Shown here one piece after another: positions 1 to 61,817 of a stretch of DNA of 61,817 nt (positions are counted from its first letter, which is position 1; each line of letters starts with the position of its first letter). The notes beneath the pieces were generated by a model that saw only the letters and a program-made list of their open reading frames with translations, was not told the DNA's origin and did no database searches. Where the stretch lies: assembly GCA_041654915.1 (NCBI GenBank), contig JBAZCO010000001.1:1-61817 (forward strand), given 5' to 3'. Source of the DNA: Clostridia bacterium. Its GTDB lineage: Bacteria; Bacillota; Clostridia; Christensenellales; DTU072. A program made the position numbers and the translations under genes.

Positions 1-140
1 AAGGGATAAGATAATTTGGATGCCGTTTAACGATGAAGGCAAGAATATAGAAAAGGCTGCACATTCATTAAAGATTTATAAAACGGTCGGGGGGGGGGGG
101 TATTCCCTTACAGCGAGCCAAAGGAGTGGGATATCATGAT
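1..140. repeat. End overlap copy 1 (same as 61678-61817); circular closure of the contig
   Basis: 1-123 are identical to 61678-61800, including the G12 run. The only mismatches are 127/131/135 vs 61804/61808/61812. Confidence 0.95.
89..100 (+). repeat. G12 homopolymer inside the N6-adenine methyltransferase gene
   Basis: cggtc + 12 G + tattcc. The upstream ORF frame and the downstream NPPF frame differ by one nucleotide across the run. Confidence 0.95.
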
Positions 141-426
141 ATCTAACCCTCCCTTTTCAGGCAGAACACAGTTATTTGAGCAAATATTTTCATATGATAA
201 GCCATTTGTGCTATTACAGCCAGTACAGGCATTTAATAACACAAGTTTTGTGCAAATGCTATGCAATAGAAATGATGACATAGGAATAATCTGCCCAAGC
301 AAAAGAATGAGTTTTATTGTAAATAATAAAGAATATAAAAACAGTAGCACAGCCTTTTACTCTTTGTGGCTTTGCTACAAAATACCCTCTATAAAGGGAT
401 TTACAAGTTTGACTATCGACAGGTAA
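136..426 (+). CDS. N6-adenine DNA methyltransferase, catalytic C-terminal part (continues from 61568 across the junction; frame broken at G12)
   Basis: Motif IV is DIMISNPPFSGR, followed by KPFVLLQP. This frame is open back to base 82 (..GGGVFPYSEPKEWDIMISNPPF), so the ATG at 136 is internal. Confidence 0.8.
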   Translation: MISNPPFSGRTQLFEQIFSYDKPFVLLQPVQAFNNTSFVQMLCNRNDDIGIICPSKRMSFIVNNKEYKNSSTAFYSLWLCYKIPSIKGFTSLTIDR

Positions 427-4655: not shown

Positions 4656-6159
4656 TGCCATAAATGACATCATAACTACGATGACAAACGCGGAAAAAAG
4701 GGAGTTTGCGGAACTTTTTACACCCACACTCTCAAGCTTGCTCCCGCCGGGCTTTTCCTTGTCGAACAAGCAAGCATTCTTTATGATCATGCGACAACAG
4801 GATAAATATACACCTATGCGTGAGTTTATCATGCTTTTAGGTGACAGGCATGGTGTAGATGTATCTTTTATTGCAGATAGACCCATAATACCAAAGGAAG
4901 GCTTATACGGCGGTTCGGGTAACTCTGGAAAGAGTTATATGTTATCTGCTTTAGGCTTAACCACAGCCGATACCTACGGCCTTGATGTGCGTGTATTTAC
5001 AGCCGAGAAGCAAGCCAAGTCTTTTAGCGGTGGTGTAGGCAAGCAAATATACGAATGGATAGAACCGCAGATAAAATCAAGGTATATAAGAAATGACGAA
5101 GAAAAAGCTATACTTACATTCCCGTCAGGCGGTACAATACATTTTTGCGGACTAGATAATGCTAATGCCTGGAAGAAATACAAGGGCGGAAATATAGCCC
5201 AAATGATATTTGACGAGGTAACGGAAATCGCACCTGAAAGCTATACAAAGCAGATAGGCGGTTGGTGCAGAAAATCGCCCAAGGCTTTCCAGATAGGGTA
5301 TACAGCCAATGCTTGTTCAGCAACAAATCCGCATGGGAAATTTGTTACATTCTATCGTGAGCGGTTTGTGGACGGCACAGGTAAAGATACTTTTTATCTA
5401 AAGGCCTTGCCAAAAGACAACCCTTTTATAGATTATGAATCATATAAGCGTGATTTAGAAAATCTAGGTGATCCTGTGTTTGCCGCACAGATGTTAGAGG
5501 GGCGTTGGGATATAATGCCGGCAGGAGATTTATTTAAGTCCGGCTGCACAAGAGAAGTTGCGGATATACCTGCAAGCGGAGTTACAAAGCGTGGCTGGGA
5601 TATAGCAGCAACTACAAAAAAAACATCAAACTATACCGCAGGAGTGAAAATGCGTTACCACGAAGGTATATACTATATCATGGATATAGATGTGTTCAAG
5701 GAAACACCCAATGAAAACGATAAGCGTATGCGGCTTAATGCACAAATAGATGGCAGAAATTGTGAGGTTGTAACCGAATTACAGCCCGGAGCCGCAGGCA
5801 AATATTTAGAAGAACATTTCAACAAAAAGCTGTTTAACGGCTTTACCCATAAATCTATCGGAGTACCAAACGATAAGGCTGTCCGTGCCAGACCTTTATC
5901 TGTTGCCTGTGCCAATGGTTTAGTCTGTATCTGGAGCAGCTGTAGAAATAAATACGAATTCTTAGAACAGCTTGTAGCTTTTCCCAACGGAGAAGATGAT
6001 GATATGGTAGATGCTTGTACCTTAGTTTTTAACGCAATCCAAGAACAAGTCGCAAATTATACGGGTAGCACACCGCAAACCAGTACAAAAAGCACAAGAA
6101 CGGATGTAAACAAAGTCGCTGCTGACAGGCTAAACAAAAGAGAAAGATGGAATTTTTAA
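4639..6159 (+). CDS. terL: Terminase large subunit
   Basis: Walker A GGSGNSGKS, Walker B MIFDEVTE, C-terminal nuclease-type acidic motif GEDDDMVDA. ATG 4639 has AGGTG 8 nt upstream; the track start 4630 is GTG. Confidence 0.8.
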   Translation: MKQLDDAINDIITTMTNAEKREFAELFTPTLSSLLPPGFSLSNKQAFFMIMRQQDKYTPMREFIMLLGDRHGVDVSFIADRPIIPKEGLYGGSGNSGKSYMLSALGLTTADTYGLDVRVFTAEKQAKSFSGGVGKQIYEWIEPQIKSRYIRNDEEKAILTFPSGGTIHFCGLDNANAWKKYKGGNIAQMIFDEVTEIAPESYTKQIGGWCRKSPKAFQIGYTANACSATNPHGKFVTFYRERFVDGTGKDTFYLKALPKDNPFIDYESYKRDLENLGDPVFAAQMLEGRWDIMPAGDLFKSGCTREVADIPASGVTKRGWDIAATTKKTSNYTAGVKMRYHEGIYYIMDIDVFKETPNENDKRMRLNAQIDGRNCEVVTELQPGAAGKYLEEHFNKKLFNGFTHKSIGVPNDKAVRARPLSVACANGLVCIWSSCRNKYEFLEQLVAFPNGEDDDMVDACTLVFNAIQEQVANYTGSTPQTSTKSTRTDVNKVAADRLNKRERWNF

Positions 6160-11496: not shown

Positions 11497-13593
11497 TTAT
11501 AATACCGTTTTCCTGTAAACCGTTGTACCACTAGTAAAATATCTATACATTTTGTTATTTAGACACATTTCTTTTCGCTCTCTGTATTTATGCGGGTCAC
11601 GATAATAGGAGTGTTTTTTTTCTTTGTCATAATATCGCACCATAGAATAATGCTTTGCCTCTTTCCAACCCGTCGCTTCAAACGACACTCCATCAAAGTA
11701 ATCGTTCAAGACCAAATATTCTATTGTTTGCCCAGCTTGCATTGTGTTCATAACAGCCTTTAACAACCTGCTTGCGCCGCCAATAATGCTTGTGTTTTGT
11801 TTGAAGCACATTCTGCTAATGGTTATATCCGCATTATTTTTATTTCCCTTGTCTACCAGCTTTATTTTCTTTGCATAGCAAATTGCACCTACAATCTCGC
11901 CCTTGTGCTTTAATGCAAAATAACCACTCCCACGAGCTGCGCCCTGAATATGGTTTTCACGGAAAAATGGATTGCACTCTTTGCTGTCACTTGCCACTAA
12001 CCTACAATTACGAGCATAAATCCTATGCTCATTCATGCCGAGTGCATTTCTTATAACGCTTTCAAGTATGGGTCTTATTCTGTCATCAGACCACTCTATA
12101 TCCCATATCTGGAATAACCTGATTCCTTCGTTCTTGCTTTCAATAAATTTACTATAATGATATGATTGCGGCTTTCCGCCCCGATTGTCCCTATTTTCTT
12201 CCTGTTCAGTAAATAGCGTTTGATGGGTGCGTATGTCATTAAACTCAAAGCCTATGTTATGATCTGGTAAATAAAAATCTATTTCTTTGGGTTTTATTTG
12301 TTGCCTATCGTTAATAACAACATTATCTGCGAGTGTACACAAAAACTCATAGAAATTATATGGTGTCCTTGCTAGGTTGCAAGCAGGACATGCCGTTTGG
12401 CTATCCACGCTTTTAAGTTCAGCCTCGCCGATCTGCCTTTCAAACTCACCGTGTTTTTCGCAGACAAATATTGCATTATCTTTTGTTGTAATCTCTGCAT
12501 TGTCCACCTTTTGTTTGTAATCATCTCTTAATTGATGATATATCGAATACGATTGCTTACGCCTGTTTTTTGACGCTTTTTCTTGCCCGCACGTAGGGCA
12601 GCCAAACCCCCTTTTGCGTTGTGTCAATGATTGCCAATACTCGCCATGTATCTCACAAATAAACGGCACCTTATCATGTGAGTGAAACTCTTTTTGCGCT
12701 ACCCTATCTTTATAGTCAGGTCTTATATCATCAAAGTTATAAGCCATGCGCCCATTAAGGGCAGAAAGGACTTTTCCGCATTCAGGGCACCCACCGCCAC
12801 GATTATGAGTAACCAATCTTTGCCAATATTCACCATGTTCTTTGCACATGAAAGGCACTTTGTCTGTGCTTAACATTTCACCATTACGTACTTTCTTTCT
12901 GTAGTCTTTTCTTATTTCATGCATAAAATCATAATCACGCTTCCTGTTCTTGAAGCCACGCTTTTTAGCAGAACATTTTAAATGCCTATTCCCCTGCTTA
13001 TAGCTTGTGATGATCATGGAGTAATATTCTTTGCATATTTCACACCGAAACCTAACCTTATCCTCGGCTCCATATTCGCCAGACAACAATTTTTCCCTAT
13101 CAACAGGATGGACAATGCTTAAGAAGTCATACTTAAGTGCGTTTCGTGCTTTTGTTTTGCTTTTTCGCCTTCTTTTAACACACATAGGGCAACGTTGCCC
13201 TTGCGCTCCGATAACATCTTGCACCCTTGCAGTAAATTCGCCATGCTCTTGGCATGTAAAGGTTGCTTTTTTGCCTACACCTTTATAGGTTTCTTTAACA
13301 ATTTTATACGGAGAGCGTGCCTGCGTATCAGCGAAAGTTCTCTCATAATATGCCTTGTAGTTTTGCTTTGGATAGCATTTCTTACAATGCTGCCTACCTG
13401 CCCTAACATTGCCGGGGTATGCTTGAAACTCACCATGCGTAGGGCACTCAAATGTTGCCTTAATATTTGCATTGACATATGTTTCAAGTATCATGCCATA
13501 CCCCCGCCTTTCTTTAATATCTTTTGCCATCTTGCTTGCGTTCTTGTTTCTTGACATATGAGTGCTCCTTTTCATGCGTGTTAGCTTACTCAT
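11497..13593 (-). CDS. Zinc-ribbon-array protein with PD-(D/E)xK-like (Vsr/DUF559-like) core and conserved C-terminal domain; paralogue A
   Basis: Six C..H/C-x(17-20)-C..C units (e.g. FMCKEHGEYWQRLVTHNRGGGCPECG). Then EIDFYLPDHNIGFEFND, then ARNC..NHIQG..GGASRLL..TSGTTVYRK. About 60% identical to 19885-21579 over the C-terminal half. Confidence 0.7.
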   Translation of the reverse strand: MSKLTRMKRSTHMSRNKNASKMAKDIKERRGYGMILETYVNANIKATFECPTHGEFQAYPGNVRAGRQHCKKCYPKQNYKAYYERTFADTQARSPYKIVKETYKGVGKKATFTCQEHGEFTARVQDVIGAQGQRCPMCVKRRRKSKTKARNALKYDFLSIVHPVDREKLLSGEYGAEDKVRFRCEICKEYYSMIITSYKQGNRHLKCSAKKRGFKNRKRDYDFMHEIRKDYRKKVRNGEMLSTDKVPFMCKEHGEYWQRLVTHNRGGGCPECGKVLSALNGRMAYNFDDIRPDYKDRVAQKEFHSHDKVPFICEIHGEYWQSLTQRKRGFGCPTCGQEKASKNRRKQSYSIYHQLRDDYKQKVDNAEITTKDNAIFVCEKHGEFERQIGEAELKSVDSQTACPACNLARTPYNFYEFLCTLADNVVINDRQQIKPKEIDFYLPDHNIGFEFNDIRTHQTLFTEQEENRDNRGGKPQSYHYSKFIESKNEGIRLFQIWDIEWSDDRIRPILESVIRNALGMNEHRIYARNCRLVASDSKECNPFFRENHIQGAARGSGYFALKHKGEIVGAICYAKKIKLVDKGNKNNADITISRMCFKQNTSIIGGASRLLKAVMNTMQAGQTIEYLVLNDYFDGVSFEATGWKEAKHYSMVRYYDKEKKHSYYRDPHKYRERKEMCLNNKMYRYFTSGTTVYRKTVL

Positions 13594-14078: not shown

Positions 14079-14431
14079 CTAGCTATCTATCCTTGACCAT
14101 GCACTCCATGTGCTTGTGCTGTAGTTATAGTATCTGCGGTGTATCTGCACGCCGTTGACCATGTATGCAATTTGGTTTTTGTGCCCCGTGTCGGTCGATA
14201 CTGTGTGTATCCAATAATAATTTGCCGACGGTGCATTTGTCGCCGTGTTACTTATGTATGACCACTCGTCCCGTCAGGTTGCTTGAAGTCAACATACACC
14301 TTGGGACCTGCCCCAAAGCTATCAGCAACGCCCTCCCACAGCACTACCTTAAGCGGTGTGAGATTGTCGTGTTGCAGAGTAGTGAGGGACAGGACAGCGG
14401 AGCGATTAGATTGTACTTTTAAATTATTCAT
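14079..14431 (-). pseudogene. Small fibre-tip/knob-like ORF split by a one-nucleotide frame break at a GGG run
   Basis: ATG 14431 with GGAGGAGG SD gives 59 aa (..VYVDFKQPDGTSGHT*). The -1 frame continues as DEWSYISNTATNAPSANYYWIHTVSTDTGHKNQIAYMVNGVQIHRRYYNYSTSTWSAWSRIDS*, ending at 14079. Confidence 0.5.
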
Positions 14432-19517: not shown

Positions 19518-19883
19518 ATGGCAAGGAAAAGAGTTAATACAATGATTTTGGCTAACATGACAGAAGAAAGCAAGCAAAAATACTTGGCGGGGGAGTATGG
19601 TTTTGGCGATAAGGCAGACTTTATTTGCCATAAGTGTGGCATTATTAAGCATGTAACTATAATGGGCTATAGACCTGACAGCCTTTGCAGGTCTTGTGCA
19701 GCCAAAAGGCGCATGAAAGAACTACGGGTAAAAGATTACCTTTTCTGCGAGGATGTGCATCCGGCTGATCGTGAACTTGCCATGAGCGGTGAATACGATA
19801 CTGTGCGTGTATGGTGCAAAAAATGTGAAGATTTTATCTTACGCACAAAAGATGATAAGGTTTGTCCGGCATGCGGAGCATGA
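19518..19883 (+). CDS. Zinc-ribbon protein (2 units); N-terminal piece of the split paralogue B
   Basis: ADFICHKCGIIKHV..SLCRSCA and VRVWCKKCEDFILRTKDDKVCPACG. Stop at 19881-19883, 1 nt before ATG 19885. Confidence 0.6.
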   Translation: MARKRVNTMILANMTEESKQKYLAGEYGFGDKADFICHKCGIIKHVTIMGYRPDSLCRSCAAKRRMKELRVKDYLFCEDVHPADRELAMSGEYDTVRVWCKKCEDFILRTKDDKVCPACGA

Positions 19884-19884
19884 T

Positions 19885-21579
19885 ATGAAAACAGAAAATA
19901 ATATACAGCTTTCAGAAGCCTCAATCAAGCGGCGAATTACTTATGCAAAAAGATACCCATATCTCAATGAAATGCACCCCGAAGATAGGGCAGATTACCT
20001 AAAGGGCAAATATAATTCAGAGGACAAGATAAGGTTTTTATGCCCTGTTTGTGGAGAATATTACAAGCAAACCACAAAAAACAAAAGAAAAGGGCGACTA
20101 CATTGGACTTGCGCAACACTTAAAAGAGCCAAAACACAAAGAACAGATGAAGCCTATCATTCTTTCAATGATTTAACACCTGAATTTCAAGAAAAATGTA
20201 GAAATAAAGAGCTAACTCGAAAGGATCGAGTTGACTTTATTTGCCCTATCTGCAAAGAGATATATTCTACTTTGCTTGGATCTCATGTTAAAGGTGCATC
20301 TTGCCGTAAGTGTGCAGCAAGATACAAAAGAGAAACACATCAACCCCGTACAGACTATGACTTCATAGATGAAATACACCCTGATGATAGACATTTAATA
20401 GGCAAGGTAAACAATAAGAGTAAGGTTCGCATTAAGTGTTCAGATTGCAAAGAATATTTTTATCAAGTTATAGCCAGTAGAGCTAACGGCTTTACCCGAT
20501 GTGAGGAATGCGGATATCTTGCTGCCGGCACTTCCAACAGGCGCAGGGAATATGAATTTGTTAATCCACTTCGAGAAGATTATGCTACAGGTTTAGCCAG
20601 CGGCGAAATCAGAACACAAGACAGAGTTATGTTTATCTGCCCTGTGCATGGTGAATACGAACAAATACTTATGTCCGGGCAATTCCACGGTTGTCAGGCA
20701 TGTACCATAGGGCTAAAACCACATCATTTGTATGAGTTTTTATTAACACTTACAGATAATATTATAGTCAATGACAGGCAGCAAATTAAACCCAAAGAAA
20801 TAGATTTTTACTTGCCGGACTATAATATTGGCTTTGAGTTTAACGATATAGGCACACATAGAACTTTATGGAAAGAGCAACTAAACGGAACGGCAAGGCT
20901 TTTTGGAAAGCCTGTAAAATATCATCTTAATAAATTTAATGATTGCAGGAAAGCAGACATACGTTTATTCCAAATATGGGATGTTGAATGGAATAATGAA
21001 CATTTACGCTCAATCCTGCAAAGCGTTATACGTAATGCGCTTGGATTAAATACAAAAAGGATTTATGCCAGAAAATGTAAACTAGTCGAATCAAACAGCA
21101 AAGAATGTAACCCGTTTTTTATTGAAAATCACATCCAAGGGCAAGCTAAGGGAAAGGGATATTTTGCACTTAAATACAAAAATGAAATAGTCGGCGCAAT
21201 TTGCTACACAGATAATCAGCGAATACTAACTGAAAGTAACGCTATAACTATAAGCAGGATGTGTTTTGCAAAAGATACCACAGTTGTTGGCGGAGCAAGT
21301 AGGTTGCTTAATGCCGTAGAAAAGAAAACAAACTGTGATTCAATAGAATACCTTGTTCTAAACGATTATTTTGACGGCATATCTTTTGAAAAAACGGGCT
21401 GGGAGAAAGTCGGTGTAAATATAATGGTCAGATATCATGACAAAGAAACAGGTAAGCTTTATTATCGACAAATAGCCCGAAGAAATGAATTTAAGCAACG
21501 CTGCCTTGAAGGGAAAATGGACAGATATTATACCAGTGGAACAACCGTTTATAGAAAGACAAAAACACCCTCGTTATGA
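19885..21579 (+). CDS. Zinc-ribbon-array / PD-(D/E)xK-like protein, paralogue B
   Basis: Four zinc-ribbon units, then EIDFYLPDYNIGFEFND, ARKC..NHIQG, GGASRLL, TSGTTVYRK. Start moved to ATG 19885; the track ORF 19789 overlaps the upstream gene. Confidence 0.7.
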   Translation: MKTENNIQLSEASIKRRITYAKRYPYLNEMHPEDRADYLKGKYNSEDKIRFLCPVCGEYYKQTTKNKRKGRLHWTCATLKRAKTQRTDEAYHSFNDLTPEFQEKCRNKELTRKDRVDFICPICKEIYSTLLGSHVKGASCRKCAARYKRETHQPRTDYDFIDEIHPDDRHLIGKVNNKSKVRIKCSDCKEYFYQVIASRANGFTRCEECGYLAAGTSNRRREYEFVNPLREDYATGLASGEIRTQDRVMFICPVHGEYEQILMSGQFHGCQACTIGLKPHHLYEFLLTLTDNIIVNDRQQIKPKEIDFYLPDYNIGFEFNDIGTHRTLWKEQLNGTARLFGKPVKYHLNKFNDCRKADIRLFQIWDVEWNNEHLRSILQSVIRNALGLNTKRIYARKCKLVESNSKECNPFFIENHIQGQAKGKGYFALKYKNEIVGAICYTDNQRILTESNAITISRMCFAKDTTVVGGASRLLNAVEKKTNCDSIEYLVLNDYFDGISFEKTGWEKVGVNIMVRYHDKETGKLYYRQIARRNEFKQRCLEGKMDRYYTSGTTVYRKTKTPSL

Positions 21580-39753: not shown

Positions 39754-40431
39754 GTGAGAAACATTGCATACAACGTGGATTGCATGGTTGCCATGAAAGA
39801 TATGGCAGATAAAGAGTTTGATTTAGCGATAGTTGATCCGCCATATAGGATAGGTGTGGACACAGCGATGAGAAAGTCGGCAGGTACACAATATGGAAAC
39901 GCAGCAGCACCAAAGGCAACATACCACACAAGCGATTGGGATACAGAGCCACCAGCTGCAGAGTATTTTAATGAGCTTAGGCGAGTAAGCAAGAATCAAA
40001 TATTGTGGGGGGCTAATCATTATATAAGCAAGATGCCCATTGATAGTAGTTGTTGGATTGTTTGGGACAAAAAGAACGGTACAAATAACTTCGCAGACTG
40101 TGAACTTGCATACACAAGTTTTAATACAGCCGTTAGAAAGTTTGACTTTATGTGGAATGGGATGTTGCAAGGCGACATGAAGAACAAAGAGTTCAGAATC
40201 CACCCCACCCAAAAGCCGGTAGCCCTCTACAAGTGGCTACTCACGAACTACGCCAAAGAGGGCGACCTGATCCTTGATACACATTTGGGTAGCGGAAGTT
40301 CAAGGATAGCTTGTTATGATATGGGCTTTGACTTTACTGGATTTGAGATAGACAAAAATTATTTTGATGCACAAGAAGAACGGTTTAGGGTGCATACAAG
40401 CCAAATTAGGATGGAGGATTTGATGTTATGA
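39754..40431 (+). CDS. DNA methyltransferase, beta-class N6A/N4C (DPPY before the SAM motif)
   Basis: DLAIVDPPY near the N-terminus. IHPTQKPVALYKWLL..GDLILDTHLGSGSS at the C-terminus. GTG start. Confidence 0.85.
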   Translation: MRNIAYNVDCMVAMKDMADKEFDLAIVDPPYRIGVDTAMRKSAGTQYGNAAAPKATYHTSDWDTEPPAAEYFNELRRVSKNQILWGANHYISKMPIDSSCWIVWDKKNGTNNFADCELAYTSFNTAVRKFDFMWNGMLQGDMKNKEFRIHPTQKPVALYKWLLTNYAKEGDLILDTHLGSGSSRIACYDMGFDFTGFEIDKNYFDAQEERFRVHTSQIRMEDLML

Positions 40432-47348: not shown

Positions 47349-48137
47349 ATGAGGGTGATAGAAAAAGTAAATCCTGCTCACGTGGACAAAATCGCAGATA
47401 GGATAGCAGGAGCAATAGTAGATTTAGCATATATAACCCATTCTGACCCAAAAATAGCAGTAGAAGTTTTGATAGGGCATGACCATTGTCATGTAATAAT
47501 TGAAACAACCGCTTTAATAGGTTATGCAGCAGTAAGCGACATTGTTAAACGAATAGGCGGCGATGTAGAAGCCGATATAAAGATCTATGAACAAGACAAG
47601 CACCTGCAAGAAAACCAAGATGGAAAGATAAGGTGTGGTGATAACGGTATATTCAAGGGTGTGCCGCTGACAGATGAAGAAAAAGAATTATCACAAATTG
47701 CAAGGGATATTTACAAAAAATGGCCATATGATGGCAAGTATATACTTGACGGCGATCGCTTAATTATATGCCAAAGCAACGCAAAAACCGAAGATATAAG
47801 AAAACTATATCCTGATGCTGTAATCAACCCCTTGGGCGATTGGATAGGCGGAACTGGTGTTGATACAGGTGTTGGCGGAAGAAAATTAGGTAGCGATATG
47901 GCTCAAAGCGTAACTGGTGGAAACATACACTCGAAAGACCTTTCCAAAGCTGATGTATCAGTCAATATCTATGCATTCCTCAAAGCACAGCAAACAGGTG
48001 AAGTTGTAGAATTAAGTTGTGCTATAGGCGATGAATATGTTGACGGCATACCTTATGGTGAAATTGTAGAAATAGCAAGAGAATTTATTAACAGGCTTGG
48101 TGGATTTGAAAAGTTTGCCGAGTGGGGATTGTTTTAA
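47349..48137 (+). CDS. metK: Miniaturised S-adenosylmethionine synthetase (MetK-like)
   Basis: HVDKIADRIAGAIVD (cf. HPDKI.DQISDA.LD). CGDNGIFKG (cf. GAGDQGLMFG). INPLGDWIGGTGVDTGVGGRK (cf. NPTGRF.IGGP.GD.GLTGRK). TGGNIHSKDLSKADVS (cf. GGGAFSGKD.TKVDRS). 262 aa. Confidence 0.7.
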   Translation: MRVIEKVNPAHVDKIADRIAGAIVDLAYITHSDPKIAVEVLIGHDHCHVIIETTALIGYAAVSDIVKRIGGDVEADIKIYEQDKHLQENQDGKIRCGDNGIFKGVPLTDEEKELSQIARDIYKKWPYDGKYILDGDRLIICQSNAKTEDIRKLYPDAVINPLGDWIGGTGVDTGVGGRKLGSDMAQSVTGGNIHSKDLSKADVSVNIYAFLKAQQTGEVVELSCAIGDEYVDGIPYGEIVEIAREFINRLGGFEKFAEWGLF

Positions 48138-48825: not shown

Positions 48826-49215
48826 ATGACTTGGCAACAATTTCAACAGTGGGTATGCAAAGAATTATCTGAGCATGGCTTTTGGGCATATGAAACTATA
48901 AACAAACCATCGGGTCAGCCGGTAGATATAATCGCAGCTAAGAATAATGTTACATATATCATTGAATGCAAGGTAACAAAAAGTGATAGATTCCCATTAA
49001 GCCGTGTAGAGGACAACCAAATAATGGCTATAGAAAAATTTAGCAGGTGCGGTAATACACAAAGTTGGTTTGCTTTTTATTTTAGAAAACACCCTGACAG
49101 CGTTTTATTTGTCAGAGCAAACATGATATTAGACTTGATTGACAGTGGAGCAAAAAGCACGACTTATGAAGAGCTGAAAGATATGAGTGAGCTGCTGCTA
49201 GAAAAAGAGCAATAA
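48826..49215 (+). CDS. Holliday-junction resolvase-like PD-(D/E)xK nuclease
   Basis: ..GQPVDIIAAKNNVTYIIECKV.. (D...E.K). Start moved to ATG 48826, downstream of the hairpin. Confidence 0.55.
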   Translation: MTWQQFQQWVCKELSEHGFWAYETINKPSGQPVDIIAAKNNVTYIIECKVTKSDRFPLSRVEDNQIMAIEKFSRCGNTQSWFAFYFRKHPDSVLFVRANMILDLIDSGAKSTTYEELKDMSELLLEKEQ

Positions 49216-49259
49216 TTGATTGATTGTTTTGAATTGCAGGCAGTCGAAGGAGCAAGTAA

Positions 49260-49640
49260 ATGAGAAAGATTAAATTCAGGGGGAAGACATTAGACGGTAG
49301 ATGGATATACGGCGACCTTTGGCACCGACCTTACGCAAAAGACTGCGTTACCATAGTCAGCTTTATGGAAGATACAGGAACAACAGGAGGTCTTGAGGTA
49401 ATCCCTGAAACCGTTGGACAGTACACTGGCTTAAAAGATAAGAACGGTATTGAGATTTACGAGGGTGATATAGTGCTCTGTAAAATACACGATAAAGAGT
49501 ATATGGGCCTAGTTGAGTATACAAATACATACGGATTTTACTATCTTTCTGGGATGGGACGTTCTGATACTGAGTTATGGGGTTGTAACGAAAAAAAAGT
49601 CATCGGCAACATCTACGAAAACCCTGAACTAATGGTTTAG
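49260..49640 (+). CDS. yopX: YopX family protein
   Basis: MRKIKFRGK...GRWIYGDL...TVGQYTGLKDKNGIEIYEGDIV...VIGNIYENPELM. Confidence 0.85.
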   Translation: MRKIKFRGKTLDGRWIYGDLWHRPYAKDCVTIVSFMEDTGTTGGLEVIPETVGQYTGLKDKNGIEIYEGDIVLCKIHDKEYMGLVEYTNTYGFYYLSGMGRSDTELWGCNEKKVIGNIYENPELMV

Positions 49641-49644
49641 ACTA

Positions 49645-49827
49645 ATGATTGAGGCAGCGGAGATGAAAAAAATAACAGTTAAGCACATAGCGGAAAAATA
49701 TATCTGCGAGACGTGCTCAAAGCTGGAGCAGCTTAAAGATAAAGTCAGGGAAAGCGGCGAAACACAGTGGTGCATGTGCACTTGCAGTCATGCGCAGGCT
49801 TGGCCGGTAAAGGAGGATTGTGAATGA
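49645..49827 (+). CDS. Small Cys-rich protein
   Basis: 60 aa. CETC...CMCTC. Confidence 0.4.
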   Translation: MIEAAEMKKITVKHIAEKYICETCSKLEQLKDKVRESGETQWCMCTCSHAQAWPVKEDCE

Positions 49828-49888
49828 TTATTCAACTCGGCACCTGGTATGTGGAGGACGATATGAACAAGGAAAGGGAGATGATAAA

Positions 49889-50104
49889 ATGAAACTAAGT
49901 GAATACATCAGCCGCATGAGAGAAATCCAAGAAGATATGTTCGACGGCGGGAAGCCAAGTGTTGAAGAGCTGATAGAACTAAGCCATCCTCAAGGTCTGG
50001 ACTTGCACTTGCTAACCGAGCAAGAGCTAGAAGTGATGATTGTAGGAATTAACAATGGGCTAGACACAATGGAAAAGGCGTATCTATATTTTGATGACGA
50101 GTGA
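49889..50104 (+). CDS. Small protein, paralogue of 51027-51239
   Basis: MKLSEYISRMREIQEDMFDGGKP vs MKLSEYISRMRAIRDDMYDGGKT. GGGAG SD before ATG 49889. Confidence 0.5.
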   Translation: MKLSEYISRMREIQEDMFDGGKPSVEELIELSHPQGLDLHLLTEQELEVMIVGINNGLDTMEKAYLYFDDE

Positions 50105-50714
50105 TAATAAACAACGAAGGCGAGATAGAAAAGTGAAGGTATTGAGTGGTAGCAGTTTAGCTGGTGGTACGCCAACAAGGGGTAGAGTAAAGGACGATTA
50201 TTACGCAACGCCACCTCAATCAACACAAGCGCTGTTAGATGTATTGGAACTAAACGGTTCGATGTTAGAGCCGGCTTGTGGAGAAGGTCATATAAGCGAA
50301 GTGTTAAAAAAGAATTATCCATGTAGCGAGATTGTATCAACCGACTTAGTCGATAGAGGGTATGGAGTTGGTGGAATTGATTTTTTAGAAAAAGAATACG
50401 ATAGAACGTTCGATAACGTGATAACTAACCCACCTTTTAAGTACATGCGGGAGTTTGTTGAGAAGTCTTTAGAGATTTCAACAGATAAAGTAATAATGTT
50501 CGGGAAAATACAATTTTTAGAAGGGCAAAGGCGAAAAGAGTTCCTTGAAAACTCACCATTAAAATACGTGTACGTGTTCAGCGAACGTCAAAACCCGATG
50601 AGAAATGGTAGTCCTGTTGATGGAAATGGCAAGAAATGGTCATCCACAATGTGTTTCGCATGGTATGTGTGGGAACAAGGTTATCAAGGAGAGCCGATAA
50701 TTAGGTGGCTATAA
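50091..50714 (+). CDS. N6-adenine DNA methyltransferase
   Basis: YYATP, LEPACGEGHI (motif I), VITNPPF (motif IV). Confidence 0.85.
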   Translation: MMTSDNKQRRRDRKVKVLSGSSLAGGTPTRGRVKDDYYATPPQSTQALLDVLELNGSMLEPACGEGHISEVLKKNYPCSEIVSTDLVDRGYGVGGIDFLEKEYDRTFDNVITNPPFKYMREFVEKSLEISTDKVIMFGKIQFLEGQRRKEFLENSPLKYVYVFSERQNPMRNGSPVDGNGKKWSSTMCFAWYVWEQGYQGEPIIRWL

Positions 50715-50756
50715 GAGGAGTGAGAAGTTGATAAACAAAGAAAGCGAGATGGAAAA

Positions 50757-50999
50757 ATGAGCGTTACAACATGGATATTTGATCCGGAGGAAGTAAAGGC
50801 AGCCATAGGGCTGTATATGGTAGAAGTGCGAGGAGTGTCGCTGGATGACATACGGAGCATTGAGTTTTTAATAATTGACGGGGAACAAGGCTCCGAGTTT
50901 GATGGGGTACAAGTAAGTTTTGATGATCCAGGGGATGTGGAATTTGTTGACGCCGACGACCAAACAGGCGGAACTGAACGGAAACAGAGGGAGGAATAA
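50757..50999 (+). CDS. Acidic hypothetical protein
   Basis: 80-aa ORF. Confidence 0.4.
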   Translation: MSVTTWIFDPEEVKAAIGLYMVEVRGVSLDDIRSIEFLIIDGEQGSEFDGVQVSFDDPGDVEFVDADDQTGGTERKQREE

Positions 51000-51026
51000 C
51001 TATGAAATGGAAGGAGTGCTAGGGAG

Positions 51027-51239
51027 ATGAAGTTGAGTGAATATATCAGCCGTATGCGGGCAATCCGAGACGATATGTATGACGGAGGGAAAACGATGCT
51101 GAAATGTTGTATGTGCGGCGATGTGTTTGATATTGGCTATGAAATGCCGAACGGTGATTATGTTTGTGCCACACACGAGTGTTGCTATGAATATTGCAAA
51201 TGTGAGGGGAAAAGAATAACTCAAGAAAGCGAGGACTGA
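51027..51239 (+). CDS. Small Cys-rich protein, paralogue of 49889-50104
   Basis: The shared N-terminal 23 aa are ~79% identical at the DNA level. Confidence 0.5.
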   Translation: MKLSEYISRMRAIRDDMYDGGKTMLKCCMCGDVFDIGYEMPNGDYVCATHECCYEYCKCEGKRITQESED

Positions 51240-51244
51240 GTGAT

Positions 51245-51523
51245 ATGAACAATGAAAAGGAAATAAAAGACAAACTTTTGAAGTTATTTGAAGAAATAGA
51301 CCGACAATCAGATGAACAGGAGATGTATATCCAAGAGTTGAGACAAAGATTATCTCTTGCTGAAAAAGTCTGCTATGAGGCTAACGGTTATCTAAAAAGC
51401 AAAGACAATCCGCTTGGCAGGATTTATTTAGACAGACTGGCTGAGGCAATTGAGAAGTGGGACAGCAGTAGGAAAAATAAGGGTGCTCAATATCTTGTGA
51501 TGGAGGATTGGGAACAATGCTGA
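51245..51523 (+). CDS. Hypothetical coiled-coil protein
   Basis: 92-aa ORF. Confidence 0.4.
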   Translation: MNNEKEIKDKLLKLFEEIDRQSDEQEMYIQELRQRLSLAEKVCYEANGYLKSKDNPLGRIYLDRLAEAIEKWDSSRKNKGAQYLVMEDWEQC

Positions 51524-53157: not shown

Positions 53158-53325
53158 GTGAAAAAACCAACCGTTAGGCAATGCAAGCTAATAGAAAAAA
53201 GATTAGGTTTAGATCCTACTAAATATCTTGTCAGGAGATGGAATCCGGTTAAAGACGGTAAAATAGAAGTTTGCCTTGTAAGCAGGAAAACAGGGGAGAA
53301 AGTATGGAAAACGATAATAACATGA
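53158..53325 (+). CDS. Small basic protein (55 aa, GTG start)
   Basis: GAGGTGG SD. VKKPTVRQCKLIEKRLGLDPTKYLVRRWNPVKDGKIEVCLVSRKTGEKVWKTIIT. Confidence 0.4.
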   Translation: MKKPTVRQCKLIEKRLGLDPTKYLVRRWNPVKDGKIEVCLVSRKTGEKVWKTIIT

Positions 53326-53477
53326 TTTGCAAGTCAGTGTCAGAAAACCAACGCGGCAATATATGGCTGTCTAATCATTTGGGTAGCATAACAACAAGGG
53401 GGGGGGAAGCCAGGGCAAGGCTATCCTTGCATACTGTCTTTTCAGCCAAGGCTGCAGTCAATGGATATACAATATGA
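53304..53477 (+). CDS. N-terminal variable-region fragment of the permuted C5-MTase (out of frame with the main ORF at G9)
   Basis: MENDNNMICKSVSENQRGNIWLSNHLGSITTRGG.. with a GGGGAG SD. With 8 or 11 G it would read into KPGQGYPCILSF..MDIQYEH. Confidence 0.55.
   Translation: MENDNNMICKSVSENQRGNIWLSNHLGSITTRGGEARARLSLHTVFSAKAAVNGYTI
53398..53406 (+). repeat. G9 homopolymer
   Basis: acaacaa + 9 G + aagcc. Confidence 0.95.
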
Positions 53478-54987
53478 ACATATTGGCACACTATGTACAA
53501 CAGATTATAAAGGAGAGAGGTGTTTACTTGCAATGGAACCTATAAATTACGCGATTGACAGCATGTCATCTAACAGCATGAAATCAAGCAATCCGCACAG
53601 CGGAATACACAAGGAGAACTATGTGAAAACAATAGATACGAATGGCAATAACCCTGCTTGCAACCAAGGGGGAAATATGATTGTTTATGCTTTATCAAGC
53701 CCATGTAAAGGAGAAAGTGGGGGTTTAACGTACATGCCAATGAAGCTACGTGTAAGAAAAATTACAGAAAGAGAGTGTTTGCGTCTTATGGGGTTGCCGG
53801 ACGATTGGTTTGATGGTGCAGATTTGCCAAAAACAAGACAGTACCAAATAATTGGAAACGGACTTGTAACAGGTAAAGATTCCTATTTTTGGTATATGTG
53901 GCAAAACATCTATAAGCTACTGAACAAGAAAAGACCAACAGTTTTCTCACAATTCAGCGGTACAGGCATGACAGAATATATAACGGATGAATTAGGTTTT
54001 TTTACAGTTTATGCAAGCGAAATAGACGAATCTGCAAATAAAGCTCATGCCAACCTGCAAAGAAAAGGCATACTTGATAGAAGAACTCGAAACCTAGGTG
54101 ATATCACGAAGGTAAGTGGATATAAAATCAGACCTTGTGATGTAATTTTCTCTTCAAGCCCTTGTCAAAGTTTTAGTCATGCAGGGAAAGGCGAGGGGGA
54201 GGATGGTGAAAGCGGCTTGATATGGGAAACCATAAGGACTGCAAGGGAAATGCTTGAGGCTACAAACGGTAGATATCCAAGCGTAATAGCAACAGAAAAT
54301 GTTGCAGGTGAGCTTTCGCACAAACACTTTTTAACTAAGTTTCTTATTGCGCTTGACAGGATGGGCTATGCCATTGACATTCAACTTCACAATGCACTTG
54401 ATTATAACGTAGCACAATCAAGGGAAAGAGTTGCAATTGTAGCAATAAAAAAAGAGTTGGTTGACGGGAACAGCTTTGAGGAGCATAGGCATAACAGGGT
54501 GCAAAGGGTCTTGAAGAAAACAAATGCAGATATACAGCTTTTTTCTGGCATAGCAACCTTCCCGCACGAGCCCAAAAAAAGCAACTTAATCGACTTTATA
54601 GATGATAATGTAGACGAAGAATATGACCTATCCGAAAGGGCATGTATGGGAATATTGCGCAGGGCATATCAAAGGGAAAAAGAAATCCCGGCTATTCTTG
54701 CATATGCGCTTATGGTGCAAAGCGGCGATTTGTACTATGAAAGTGAATATGACAGCAAGCACGGGAAGGTAGATGGCAATAAACTTAGGGAATGGTATGC
54801 AGATATTATTGATAAAGGTTTTGAGAAAGTTGAACTGCCTGTGTGCCTTGAAAATCATGGTACAGATAGCAGGATCAAGATAAAGGAAAATGAAACACCA
54901 ACTGTAACTTCAAGATGGGGAACAGGTGGCAATAATATGGCACTGGTGCTAGATGTCATAAATGACACTGGGGGGGGTATAACGTGA
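53461..54987 (+). CDS. Circularly permuted DNA (cytosine-5) methyltransferase, main ORF
   Basis: Order: IX RKITERECLRLMGLPDDW, X QYQIIGNGLV, I FSQFSGTG, II ASEIDESA, IV SSSPCQSFSHAGK, VI IATENVAG, VIII QSRERVAIVA, then a variable C-terminus ending ..DTGGG. Confidence 0.8.
   Translation: MDIQYEHIGTLCTTDYKGERCLLAMEPINYAIDSMSSNSMKSSNPHSGIHKENYVKTIDTNGNNPACNQGGNMIVYALSSPCKGESGGLTYMPMKLRVRKITERECLRLMGLPDDWFDGADLPKTRQYQIIGNGLVTGKDSYFWYMWQNIYKLLNKKRPTVFSQFSGTGMTEYITDELGFFTVYASEIDESANKAHANLQRKGILDRRTRNLGDITKVSGYKIRPCDVIFSSSPCQSFSHAGKGEGEDGESGLIWETIRTAREMLEATNGRYPSVIATENVAGELSHKHFLTKFLIALDRMGYAIDIQLHNALDYNVAQSRERVAIVAIKKELVDGNSFEEHRHNRVQRVLKKTNADIQLFSGIATFPHEPKKSNLIDFIDDNVDEEYDLSERACMGILRRAYQREKEIPAILAYALMVQSGDLYYESEYDSKHGKVDGNKLREWYADIIDKGFEKVELPVCLENHGTDSRIKIKENETPTVTSRWGTGGNNMALVLDVINDTGGGIT
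54970..54977 (+). repeat. G8 homopolymer
   Basis: gacact + 8 G + tataacg. Confidence 0.95.
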
Positions 54988-55187
54988 CGCACAACAGAAC
55001 AGGTACACTGCGGTCGGCTTGTCAGTCTGTATTTTTAGTTGAAGCTTCGCCACAAGATAAAAAGAAGACTCGTTGCTTTAGTGGTGATTTTGCTGCAAGA
55101 AAAGAGTCTGAACATTATCCAACCATAACAGGCAACCATGCAAAAGTAAGTGCTGATTTGCTGATCATCCTAGAGGAAAAAGAATGA
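54984..55187 (+). CDS. Possible C-terminal extension of the permuted C5-MTase (joined if the tract is G9)
   Basis: The frame is continuous with the MTase after a +1 G. Contains ..NRTGTLRSA.. and ..YPTITGNH... Its stop overlaps ATG 55184. Confidence 0.4.
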   Translation: MTHNRTGTLRSACQSVFLVEASPQDKKKTRCFSGDFAARKESEHYPTITGNHAKVSADLLIILEEKE

Positions 55188-55819
55188 AAATATTAGAACT
55201 GTTTGCAGGAACAAGGTCAATAGGCAAAGCATTTGAACAGAATGGACATAAAGTCTTTTCTGTTGATTGGAGCAAGGATTTTGAAAATATTGACTTATAC
55301 GCAGATATTCTTGCCTTAACTCGTGATGATATCATCAATAAGTTTGGCTATCCGGATGTAATCTGGGCAAGCCCTGACTGCACAACCTATAGTGTTGCAG
55401 CAATTAGTCATCATAGGCGACGCGAAGAAAGTGGAAATTTAGCTCCAATTTCTGAATATGCCAAGTTTTGCGATGAAGTAAATAAGCATGTACTTTATTT
55501 AATCGAATCCCTTTCTCCTAGATTTTGGTTTATTGAAAATCCACGGGGGGGGCTAAGAAAGATGGACTTTATGAAAGATTTGCCTAGATATACAGTTACG
55601 TATTGTCGGTATGGAGATACAAGAATGAAGCCTACGGATATCTGGACAAATCATCCAAACCCAAAATTTAAGCCTATGTGTAAAAATGGTGATCCTTGTC
55701 ATATTGCTGCACCACGTGGCTCAAGAACTGGCACGCAAGGAATAAAGGGAAGCATCAAGCGATCTATAATTCCAAATGAATTATGCCAACATATTGCAAG
55801 CATATGTGAAGAAAGGTGA
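55184..55819 (+). CDS. Small C5-MTase-like methyltransferase with an internal G8 run (in frame)
   Basis: I ILELFAGTRSIG. IV-like IWASPDCTTYSVAA (Cys retained, PDC instead of PC). VI FIENPRGG (the GG is coded by the G8 run). 211 aa. Confidence 0.7.
   Translation: MKILELFAGTRSIGKAFEQNGHKVFSVDWSKDFENIDLYADILALTRDDIINKFGYPDVIWASPDCTTYSVAAISHHRRREESGNLAPISEYAKFCDEVNKHVLYLIESLSPRFWFIENPRGGLRKMDFMKDLPRYTVTYCRYGDTRMKPTDIWTNHPNPKFKPMCKNGDPCHIAAPRGSRTGTQGIKGSIKRSIIPNELCQHIASICEER
55545..55552 (+). repeat. G8 homopolymer
   Basis: ccac + 8 G + ctaag. Confidence 0.95.
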
Positions 55820-57755: not shown

Positions 57756-57962
57756 ATGAAAACTTATGAAAAAGACGGGGTAAAATATATAACGCACAGG
57801 GATGCACTAAAGTATTATGAGTGTACGCCTACCACTTTGCTTAATTGGCGAGAAAGCGGTCGAATAAAGATTTATAAATTACCTCTTGATAGCGGGCATT
57901 TATATGCAGTAGATCCGATTTTAAGAAAATACCATATAGGGGGTGAAAGGTTTGACAGATAG
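57756..57962 (+). CDS. Helix-turn-helix (excisionase/MerR-like) DNA-binding protein
   Basis: YITHRDALKYYECTPTTLLNWRESGRIKIYKL. Confidence 0.45.
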   Translation: MKTYEKDGVKYITHRDALKYYECTPTTLLNWRESGRIKIYKLPLDSGHLYAVDPILRKYHIGGERFDR

Positions 57963-58416
57963 GGAAAAAGCAACAATAGAAGAAAGCAGATACTTGATTT
58001 ACAGTGTGTTTAACAACGGCGATGTAACCAAGGCTTCTGTTAAAGACCCTGACAATGAAAGACCCTTACCGAGATACAAAGACGGTGGCGGTGTATATGT
58101 TTGGGTCGGCAAGAAAAAGCTATATGTAAAGCGTTTGGTTGCAAAGCATTTTATGAACGAAGTCGGTGATAGAGTAGAGTGCATAGACGGTAACGAAGAT
58201 AATTGCTCCGTGGTAAATTTGCGTATAGGTAAGCGTGATTATAGTAGTGATAGAAAGATATATACCAAGGTTTCGGTTGACGGTGTTGTCTATGATTCCA
58301 TCTCTGCTGCGGAGCGTGCTTTAATGGTATCTCACGGTTATCTAACAAGATATTTTAACGGCCAAAGAAGTGGTAAAATCTTAGAAGGACACAAAATTAA
58401 AATAATAAAGGAGTGA
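57943..58416 (+). CDS. Degenerate HNH_3/NUMOD-type homing-endonuclease-like protein
   Basis: VKRLVAKHFMN...VECIDGNEDNCSVVNLR (the usual His is replaced by Cys). C-terminal VSVDGVVYDSISAAERAL is a NUMOD1-like motif. Non-ATG start. Confidence 0.45.
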   Translation: MKGLTDREKATIEESRYLIYSVFNNGDVTKASVKDPDNERPLPRYKDGGGVYVWVGKKKLYVKRLVAKHFMNEVGDRVECIDGNEDNCSVVNLRIGKRDYSSDRKIYTKVSVDGVVYDSISAAERALMVSHGYLTRYFNGQRSGKILEGHKIKIIKE

Positions 58417-58997: not shown

Positions 58998-59483
58998 ATG
59001 GCTATATATAATAAAAACAAAAAAGCAAAATTTTATAAAGGTTTCTATAAGCCTGTAAACTGGTATCACCGTGGCCATAAAGTGGCTGGTTGGGAAGAAG
59101 GTATCAAGTCTGGTGAGAGTATTTTGTTTGAAGATACCTACGATGATTTTATGGATATCGAAATGTCGGGCAAGAGCGAACAGGTGCAGACAGTACAAGG
59201 GAAGAATTTTGTTGATATTTCTGGCGAACTTTTTAAAGTTACCATAGGATATGCACCTGGTTCAGCAGAAAGTAAAGCTATATTTGCTGACAACAGTGTT
59301 GTGGTCGGTATGTCTCGGAATGCATTTATGAATATAAATGTCAATCTAATATATAGAAACCCCACAACAGGATATGTAAAATACTCGTCAAATTTTGCAT
59401 GGTATGGTGTCGGTTTTAAAGTGTACTTAAAGCCCAGTACAAATTACATAAAAAATTTTACAGGCGATGGTTACGCTGGGTAG
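58998..59483 (+). CDS. Tail fibre protein, 5' part (frame ends at TAG 59481)
   Basis: ..MSGKSEQVQTVQGKNFVD... The -1 frame is open from 59420 and continues into 59552-60265. Confidence 0.55.
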   Translation: MAIYNKNKKAKFYKGFYKPVNWYHRGHKVAGWEEGIKSGESILFEDTYDDFMDIEMSGKSEQVQTVQGKNFVDISGELFKVTIGYAPGSAESKAIFADNSVVVGMSRNAFMNINVNLIYRNPTTGYVKYSSNFAWYGVGFKVYLKPSTNYIKNFTGDGYAG

Positions 59484-59551: not shown

Positions 59552-60265
59552 ATGGCTTTTGCGTTTATAGTTATAGCACCATCAACCGCTACTAGTGGGG
59601 TGCAATTAGTACAAGAAGTTACAGGTTTGCAAGTAGAGTTAGGCTCAACCGCAACTGCCTTTGAGCCGTTTACTCCCGACAGTCCTTCACCAAATTATCC
59701 ATCGCTTGTTAACAGTGCTGGCAAAAAATTACTTGTAAATAGTAACGAAGTAATTATCCCTACCCTACACAAAATCGGTGACGTAGCTGATGAGTGGAAC
59801 AGCAAAACAGGTGAAATCACAAGGCGGATTGGTGTTAAAGTTTTTGACGGAACGGAAGCCACAACACTATACACTTATAATGATTTAAATGGGGTTTATT
59901 TTGCGAGCATTTTACCAGAAAACCAATTAAGAGGGCCTGGCTTTTGCACGCATGAAAGTAGGGTGGGCAACTATGGCAGTTCATCTGGAACTTATATGTG
60001 GGTTGGTGCAAATAATAGAGATGTTTTTTGGATAGGTATTTGTGATTACCTTAATAAACCAACCGTGGGCGAAATACAAGACTGGCTTGCAGACCAGTAT
60101 AACAACGGAACGCCAGTGACGCTTTACTATCAACTATCAACACCAGTCATAGAGCAAGTAGCGACCAAAGTACCGTCATATCCAAAAATAACGGAGATAG
60201 TACAAGATAACAACATAAAAACAGATATAACAGCGACAGCAAAAATAGTGGATTTGGGGGAGTAA
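59552..60265 (+). CDS. Tail fibre protein, 3' part (no SD at ATG 59552; probably a continuation of 58998-59483)
   Basis: ..LQVELGSTATAFEPFTPDSPSPNYPS... The upstream same-frame sequence VGFFEADGTFISDAISNSFTTPSN is protein-like. Confidence 0.55.
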   Translation: MAFAFIVIAPSTATSGVQLVQEVTGLQVELGSTATAFEPFTPDSPSPNYPSLVNSAGKKLLVNSNEVIIPTLHKIGDVADEWNSKTGEITRRIGVKVFDGTEATTLYTYNDLNGVYFASILPENQLRGPGFCTHESRVGNYGSSSGTYMWVGANNRDVFWIGICDYLNKPTVGEIQDWLADQYNNGTPVTLYYQLSTPVIEQVATKVPSYPKITEIVQDNNIKTDITATAKIVDLGE

Positions 60266-61581: not shown

Positions 61582-61813
61582 CACTTATGTTTCAATGAAT
61601 AAATCTCATGATGAGTGTTATACACGCTTGCCTGATGCTTTGGATATGTTTTCCTTTTTACAAAAGCATATAAGTTTAAGGGATAAGATAATTTGGATGC
61701 CGTTTAACGATGAAGGCAAGAATATAGAAAAGGCTGCACATTCATTAAAGATTTATAAAACGGTCGGGGGGGGGGGGTATTCCCTTACAGCGAGCCAAAG
61801 GAGGGGGGTATAA
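61568..61813 (+). CDS. N6-adenine DNA methyltransferase, N-terminal part (runs into G12; continues at base 82-426 in another frame)
   Basis: ..DECYTRLPDAL..DKIIWMPFNDEGKNIEKA..KTVGGGG. Overlaps the parB stop. Confidence 0.7.
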   Translation: MANSNTYVSMNKSHDECYTRLPDALDMFSFLQKHISLRDKIIWMPFNDEGKNIEKAAHSLKIYKTVGGGGYSLTASQRRGV

Positions 61814-61817
61814 TGAT
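61678..61817. repeat. End overlap copy 2
   Basis: See 1-140. Confidence 0.95.
61766..61777 (+). repeat. G12 homopolymer (second copy of 89-100)
   Basis: Same context as 89-100. Confidence 0.95.

Follow-up and report, generated by a model that had tools for sequence, protein, structure and literature searches.

Guanine tracts as candidate frame switches in three orphan DNA methyltransferase genes of an uncultured phage

Results and Discussion

We analyzed a stretch of 61,817 nucleotides (positions 1 to 61,817 of contig JBAZCO010000001.1, assembly GCA_041654915.1, filed under Clostridia bacterium), referred to below as the window. It represents a phage genome with terminal redundancy: positions 1-140 repeat 61678-61817, giving a unit of 61,677 bp with a G+C content of 40%. 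Three orphan DNA methyltransferase (MTase) genes of this phage carry four tracts of 8 to 12 guanines. In our judgment these tracts are probably slippage-prone contingency loci that act as frame switches in the three genes.

Long guanine tracts are confined to methyltransferase genes

An exhaustive scan of the window for G runs of at least eight returned 89-100 (G12), 53398-53406 (G9), 54970-54977 (G8), 55545-55552 (G8) and 61766-61777 (G12). Since 1-140 repeats 61678-61817, the last of these is the same tract as the first, and the unit thus has four tracts. The same scan found no C run of seven or more in the window. The G-run spectrum of the unit is bimodal: the counts drop about five-fold per added base (7683, 1827, 323, 63 and 12 runs of one to five G) to one G6, there is no G7, and then follow the four long tracts (two G8, one G9, one G12). 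At order 0, about 0.15 runs of at least eight are expected, so that the repeats in these open reading frames (ORFs) are longer than composition predicts. Markov simulations gave means of 0.2 at order 2 and 0.8 at order 4, and four such runs were reached in 1% of the order-4 simulations.

All four tracts have G on the coding strand and lie in three of the five DNA MTase genes, and none occurs in the other approximately 57 kb. The five genes, identified with Pfam and PHROGs, occupy 7.0% of the unit, and the chance of this placement is P = 2.4e-5 for four tracts, or 3.4e-4 when they are counted as three genes. The sole G6 of the genome (40007-40012) sits in a fourth MTase gene. A preliminary description, made from the sequence by eye, had proposed that G or C runs of at least eight are confined to three of the five MTase genes, on the coding strand and at Gly-Gly(-Gly) positions, and that this placement is non-random; the scan bears this out, with no comparable G runs outside the MTase genes. 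Every tract codes for Gly-Gly(-Gly), and of the 109 Gly-Gly dipeptides that the genome encodes, six are coded by a GGG-GGG pair, all of them in the tracts. The share of GGG among Gly codons is 14.5% genome-wide and 13-19% in the MTase genes, whose composition is otherwise ordinary. General codon bias therefore does not explain the tracts.

Three tracts interrupt ancestral reading frames

Three tracts break the ancestral frame of their gene, while the G8 at 55545 is in frame. Repair takes +1 or -2 G at G12, -1 or +2 at G9 and +1 or -2 at the G8 at 54970, and none is needed at 55545; the frame arithmetic of the preliminary description was correct at all four sites. We conclude that the ancestral frame ran through the tracts because homologues align end to end, conserved modules span the tracts, the off-phase segments stay open over lengths well beyond chance and dN/dS, the ratio of nonsynonymous to synonymous substitution rates, is 0.12 for the gene with G12. 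The segments severed at G9, the G8 at 54970 and G12 are all still open (chances of 0.05, 0.006 and 0.001 for the three segments).

The first gene, which we call the junction MTase, consists of the following features:

61595..61817, + strand: 5' part of a small N6-adenine MTase (EcoRI_methylase-like, phrog_799); crosses the window end and resumes at position 1
1..139, + strand: shifted-frame continuation of the N-terminal ORF; its TGA stop (137-139) overlaps the ATG at 136-138
89..100 (= 61766-61777), + strand: G12 tract coding four Gly; MTase out of frame, restored by G13 or G10
136..426, + strand: 3' ORF of 96 amino acids, beginning MISNPPF (motif IV), in the ancestral frame

With one G added, the product is 169 amino acids long, and its alignment with MTase homologues of 165-220 amino acids covers 98% of that length. 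The repaired product scores 31.8 bits against PF13651 (cutoff 26.4) and matches phrog_799 at 7.6e-14. The NPPF motif and the EcoRI_methylase-like profile over the full length are thus found in the repaired protein, whereas the unrepaired gene is split. Invariant residues flank G12 on both sides of the alignment, and the homologues are without a Gly run at this position. The chance that the 97-codon off-frame stretch stays open is 0.001. In comparison with a sequence from an anaerobic-digester metagenome (L286, see below), dN/dS is 0.12 for the whole gene and 0.28 for the 136..426 part.

The second gene, a C5-type MTase that spans 53304-55187 in all (PF00145), carries two tracts:

53304..53477, + strand: 5' ORF of 57 amino acids, with which an N-terminal target-recognition module begins; in a relative (L003, see below) the ORF and the MTase form one frame
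53398..53406, + strand: G9 tract coding Arg-Gly-Gly; out of frame, G8 or G11 joins the 5' ORF to the MTase
53461..54987, + strand: central ORF, C5 MTase (PF00145, E = 3e-42), with possible restart codons at 53461 and 53533
54970..54977, + strand: G8 tract coding Gly-Gly-Gly; the protein stops at 54985-54987, and G9 adds 67 residues
54984..55187, + strand: C-terminal extension ORF of 67 amino acids with two more modules resembling a target-recognition domain (TRD) (GTLRS, PTITGNH)

All of the C5 motifs I (FxGxG), IV (PCQ), VI (ENV), VIII (QxRxR), IX and X are present, in the order TRD modules, IX, X, I, IV, VI, VIII, further TRD modules, which places the enzyme in the circularly permuted type. 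Against a normal-order reference (P0120), residues 213-553 match 5-352 and residues 80-209 match 368-551, which is the C-terminal part with the target-recognition and IX-X region; a second reference (P0146) is likewise of normal order, and two others (P0117 and P0118) have the same permuted order. As a consequence of the permutation, target-recognition modules stand at both ends of the chain, and judging by sequence several of them appear to be of the TL type. G9 lies inside a conserved N-terminal module (SVxEN..WLSxH..TTGGGKPGQGYPCIL; E = 1e-9 to 1e-11 against many homologues). A conserved C-terminal module contains the G8 at 54970; there the repaired reading VINDTGGGYNVTHNRTGTLRS matches VLNDQGGxVMxVxxNxTGTLRA. 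In its present state the 57-amino-acid 5' ORF is severed and the enzyme ends 67 codons early; the chance that this 67-codon stretch stays open off frame is 0.006.

The third gene is intact:

55184..55819, + strand: small C5-type MTase of 211 amino acids (phrog_757), intact
55545..55552, + strand: G8 tract coding the Arg-Gly-Gly of a conserved ENPRGG; in frame (ON), and a one-base change either way truncates the protein

ENPRGG is kept in 57 of 57 homologues of this small MTase in IMG/VR, with homopolymer coding in none. In two homologues of the permuted enzyme of similar G+C content, TTGGGKPG is coded GGT GGT GGT/GGC and NDQGG is coded GGT/GGC. Viral C5 MTases with the motif GAKTGLY have Gly-Gly-Gly upstream in 53 of the 81 sampled, and none has a G run longer than six. 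On a comparison of these homologous sequences, the homopolymeric coding of the Gly motifs is derived and lineage-specific.

Stop and start codons overlap as ATGA at 136-139 (shifted 5' ORF and 3' ORF of the junction MTase) and at 55184-55187, where the stop of the C-terminal extension overlaps the start of the small C5 MTase. Owing to these overlaps, the state of a tract could also affect translation of the next gene.

Tract length and frame differ in related genomes

Two relatives cover the tracts at G12 and G9, and at both sites repeat length and frame differ from those in the window. The first (L003, from GCA_012511915.1), about 89% identical, is a 2.8-kb contig from a Clostridiaceae metagenome-assembled genome of a biogas study. 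Where the window reads ACAACAA-G9, it has ACAAC-G10; it is one base shorter at this site, and its 5' ORF runs in frame into the MTase. The second, L286 (from SRR3166067, 87% identical), has G7 in place of G12, with the in-frame reading KTVGGVFPHSEPKEWDVMISNPPF. L003 was the only contig that GTDB genomes yielded; JGI metagenomes gave only distant C5 MTases, and no close relatives were found among INPHARED phages or in IMG/VR. In L003 we also observed that the A7 at 54574-54580 inside the C5 MTase is A6 (at about 2495), which truncates the enzyme after motif VIII.

Guanine and cytosine tracts recur in methyltransferases of other phages

We compared 80 distant MTase loci (803 kb) and three polyG-blind locus sets (2.17 Mb). 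In the 80 loci, G or C runs of at least eight occur only in MTase genes, one contig end aside. Homologous C5 MTases carry G9 (L030) or G10 (L033 and L034) at the same site, with the frame broken in both cases, and L033 has a further G9, in frame, in a DPPY MTase. A pattern search for at least eight G directly upstream of GAKTGLY returned six IMG/VR contigs in both ON and OFF states. Two loci, one ON with G8 (L152) and the other OFF with G9 (L030), are 99.56% identical over 5.2 kb, and the tract is their sole indel. Four loci (L033, L150, L153 and L155) have two tracts each, all in MTase genes.

The polyG-blind sets yielded 13 independent tracts, of which 6-7 are located in MTase genes, while 10.7% of the sequence codes for MTases (P about 1e-3 to 1e-4); the set with about 52% G+C gave no tracts. 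The position of the tracts varies, and includes the target-recognition domain, motif IV (PPCQ) and sites just before ENV and just after DPPY. As the phage contigs are unrelated, the enrichment points to something general, and the comparative evidence suggests that the association between polyG and MTase genes is widespread in phages.

Several of these loci have features of their own. Two tracts occur within a single C5 MTase gene in L150 (oriented positions 355 and 572) and L155 (37 and 211); in L150 both tracts are G10 and each shifts the frame; the target-recognition domain holds one of them, and the other falls between motifs IX and X. In L157 the C5 MTase has a G8 before ENV that breaks the frame, and, around oriented position 5175, an apparent intein-like insertion before the catalytic Cys of motif IV. 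The C5 MTase of L198 is truncated, with a G11 at its 3' edge, and has an in-frame TAG (2736-2738) at a conserved Gln (YPNTV*LGD), which suggests that TAG may be reassigned in this phage. A G8 beside an MTase start in L001 was set aside as uninformative, as the contig is GC-rich. Pairs of C runs (C7-TA-C7 and C7-T-C8, L090-L146, near locus position 3792) were likewise rejected since they vary by substitution and not by length; in many phages of about 52% G+C these pairs code for TPPTPP, a linker rich in Pro, in a replication-type protein, and the C7-TA-C7 form is found close to the small MTase at many loci.

Switching, decay and other explanations

If the four tracts are contingency loci, a G would be gained or lost, reversibly and at high frequency, through slipped-strand mispairing as the DNA is replicated. 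The small N6-adenine MTase would be OFF now and ON at G13 or G10, while the small C5 MTase would be ON now and switched by the G8 at 55545. The G9 at 53398 and the G8 at 54970 would set whether the N-terminal and the C-terminal modules join the C5 catalytic core. Genomes of a single burst would then differ in methylation pattern, with up to 16 phasotypes. The phage might benefit from such bet-hedging by balancing protection from classical restriction against exposure to methylation-dependent restriction, or against a cost of methylation in lysogens. A further-reaching proposal, which we put forward as no more than tentative, is a multi-locus methylation switchboard: the tracts at the ends of the C5 enzyme would attach or drop single recognition modules and so alter its specificity instead of just turning it on or off, the two others would toggle two other MTases to give up to 16 patterns per burst, and polyG/polyC switches of MTases would be widespread and unrecognised in uncultured phages of anaerobic communities.

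The preliminary description had taken the placement of the tracts as the hallmark of contingency loci and had proposed that their lengths be compared. Placement, ancestral frames, recurrence in other phages and the differences in length and frame at G12 and G9 among relatives support its reading in part, but near-identical assemblies gave no such variation. Indeed, the JGI/IMG window and the ENA, NCBI and Logan contigs, four assemblies of the lineage that are possibly not independent samples, are 100% identical over the MTase block and have identical tract lengths. In an exact-sequence look-up the G12-state product was found in NCBI, Logan and ENA, and the alternative-phase products of all four tracts were absent from a collection of 15 billion proteins. 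These results weigh against active switching, as do several of the points taken up next.

The main rival is decay, in which the tracts came about by drift at Gly-Gly-Gly motifs of dispensable accessory MTase genes and then slipped and inactivated these genes, as accidental, non-adaptive hot spots in genes at an early stage of pseudogenisation and with no switch involved. It would accommodate three of the four tracts being out of frame at once and in the same state in all assemblies. Dispensability also fits the L286 orthologue of the junction MTase, which has two nonsense codons further on, and the A7 to A6 change of L003, a second kind of homopolymer frameshift in the C5 MTase gene. Across IMG/VR only six C5 MTases have at least eight G at GAKTGLY, so that polyG is rare in the family, a rarity compatible with chance combinations of codons in a large family. 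Moreover, the commonest coding of ENPRGG, AGGGGCGGG, is a single synonymous change away from the G8 at 55545. Against decay, however, stand the four tracts in three MTase genes with none elsewhere in 57 kb, and the second tracts of other phages, which likewise lie in MTase genes. The segments past the shifts are open (P = 0.006 and 0.001) and homologous to functional modules, dN/dS is 0.12, and ON and OFF alleles stand side by side in near-identical phages. On balance we hold decay to be a serious explanation, although a rather unlikely one.

It is improbable that the tracts are real and only their lengths are miscalled, with true lengths that keep every gene in frame. Short-read sequencing is prone to error at long G runs, most of the differences between the first copy of the repeat and the final 14 bases of the window are changes to G, and the frame is also broken at two GGG sites, 14270-14272 (minus strand) and 59478-59480, each mended by +1 G. 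Yet four assemblies from different pipelines agree, and A8, T8 and T9 runs in the terminase, the helicase and other long ORFs leave the frames unbroken. No uniform error mends all sites, as +1 G throughout would disrupt the small MTase, now intact, without bringing G9 into frame, and miscalls would leave the MTase-only placement unexplained. The undercalling artefact about which the preliminary description had cautioned is thereby largely answered.

The break at 14270 is in a small knob-like protein of the tail module. That at 59478 separates the ORFs 58998-59483 and 59552-60265, and a weak match to a PHROG 'neck protein' spans the junction; tblastn against phages gave nothing across either break, and Pfam likewise nothing. 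Both breaks are real features of the assemblies, and consensus errors at G3 in short-read data are implausible; the cause may be real mutation, recoding or separate genes.

Constitutive recoding, in which RNA polymerase slippage or ribosomal frameshifting gives full-length enzymes and there is no genetic switch, is very improbable: transcriptional slippage does rescue frameshifted genes at long A/T runs in some bacteria, and the ATGA overlaps at 136-139 and 55184-55187 point to tightly coupled translation, but the known cases are on A or T runs and not on G, the required direction of the shift differs among the tracts, and relatives have in-frame alleles.

Relation to known phase-variable systems

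Homopolymer contingency loci have been shown in phages T2 and T4 (Gomez, Barrick and Waters 2025, bioRxiv 10.1101/2025.10.21.683753). Among them is the DNA-glucosylation gene agt, which encodes the alpha-glucosyltransferase; reversible frameshifts at its homopolymer allow part of the population to evade one restriction system while exposing it to a different one. The same preprint mentions that polyG had been seen before in receptor-binding proteins of Campylobacter phages and in a methylase gene of Bordetella phage BPP-1. Like agt, the genes described here have homopolymer frameshift sites and belong to phage DNA modification. The T2 and T4 loci, however, were demonstrated experimentally in virulent coliphages, where runs of 6-9 A occur in rII or glucosylation genes, whereas here G runs of 8-12 lie in MTase genes of an uncultured, temperate phage, and we infer their role.

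The polyG tract in the bpm adenine MTase of the Bordetella phage BPP-1 was reportedly described by Liu et al. 2004 (J Bacteriol 186:1503, as cited in bioRxiv 10.1101/2025.10.21.683753). Comparing the sequences, we found this tract to be G8 in BPP-1, G8 in vB_BbrP_003, G9 in BIP-1 and G10 in BMP-1, at an identity of at least 99.6%. It is the sole G8 of the BPP-1 genome, in which about 2.5 such runs are expected by chance. Here, too, a phage orphan MTase gene has a run of G on its coding strand, and the length of the Bordetella run differs among otherwise near-identical phages. In BPP-1, by contrast, the genome is GC-rich and a single gene carries a single tract, while the present phage has four tracts in three MTase genes at 40% G+C, with two tracts flanking the recognition modules of one enzyme.

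M.BssHII is a circularly permuted C5 MTase, and the Bacillus phages SPR, phi3T and rho11s encode multispecific C5 MTases; to our knowledge, homopolymer switches have not been described for any of these enzymes. The permuted enzyme resembles M.BssHII in having motifs IX-X before I-VIII, a likeness of motif order that does not imply kinship. It also appears to share tandem TL-type recognition modules with the SPR, phi3T and rho11s enzymes, from which multispecificity does not follow. What is new here is a multi-locus set in a low-GC uncultured phage, with two tracts flanking the recognition modules of a permuted C5 enzyme.

Campylobacter Fletchervirus phages likewise reportedly have several hypermutable G tracts per genome, of 7-11 G, which give phenotypic mixtures (Sorensen et al. 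2021, Cell Rep 35:109214); there the tracts are in receptor-binding proteins, and here they are in DNA-modification genes. In bacteria, repeat-switched MTases are classic and include Type III mod, Type I hsd and the Type IIG cj0031 with its polyG (PMC4889913, PMC12707154). A 2026 review of MTase regulation names no repeat-switched phage MTase (PMC13076061). By analogy with bacterial phasevarions, the genes described here are candidates for the repeat-driven ON/OFF control of a DNA MTase, which in bacteria alters methylation across the whole genome. Bacterial phasevarions, however, are chromosomal, usually belong to restriction-modification systems and are defined by a regulon, whereas the present genes are phage-borne orphans whose main substrate is presumably the phage genome. 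'Phasevarion' is not justified here beyond 'phase-variable MTase candidate'.

Phage orphan MTases are usually taken as fixed anti-restriction equipment. That a virus can vary its DNA methylation by such tracts is real, though it has received little study. If phage MTases switch stochastically as proposed, one phage lineage would present mixed methylation to hosts with classical and methylation-dependent restriction, and its lysogens could differ epigenetically. The reading of host range, the linking of phages to hosts by methylation in metagenomes and escape in phage therapy would then be affected as well.

Organization of the phage genome

Pfam and PHROGs identify tailed-phage genes for a tape measure, a Mu-type portal, a ClpP-like protease, terminase, primase, integrase and a ParB-like protein. 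The phage is temperate and tailed, and its hosts are probably Clostridia in anaerobic digesters. Its two MTase genes outside the set with tracts are the following:

39754..40431, + strand: N6_N4 (DPPY) MTase, intact; contains the G6 at 40007-40012
50091..50714, + strand: second phrog_799 DNA MTase, paralogue of the junction MTase, without a tract

A 262-amino-acid protein encoded at 47349-48137 strongly matches phrog_1569, a family of unknown function, and has, at a score under the Pfam cutoff, a domain resembling the N-terminal one of S-adenosylmethionine synthetase; the protein may have a part in supplying S-adenosylmethionine to the five MTases.

Three mismatches separate the two copies of the 140-bp repeat (61804 T>G, 61808 A>G and 61812 C>A in the end copy, giving AGGAGGGGGG), and all of them fall in the final 14 bases of the window. 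The ENA contig has the start-copy version, and the differing end copy is a minor variant or else a contig tip full of errors. At about 49100-51500, the ENA contig departs from the window upstream of 49595, with a YopX gene in place, and the NCBI and Logan contigs both stop near 51476-51498; either the module varies or assembly is difficult here. The structural module contains two large ORFs (11497-13593 and 19789-21579) with matches to the DUF4379 treble-clef zinc finger, and 57943-58416 encodes a protein with an I-TevI DNA-binding-like domain. These three may be insertions of the homing-endonuclease type.

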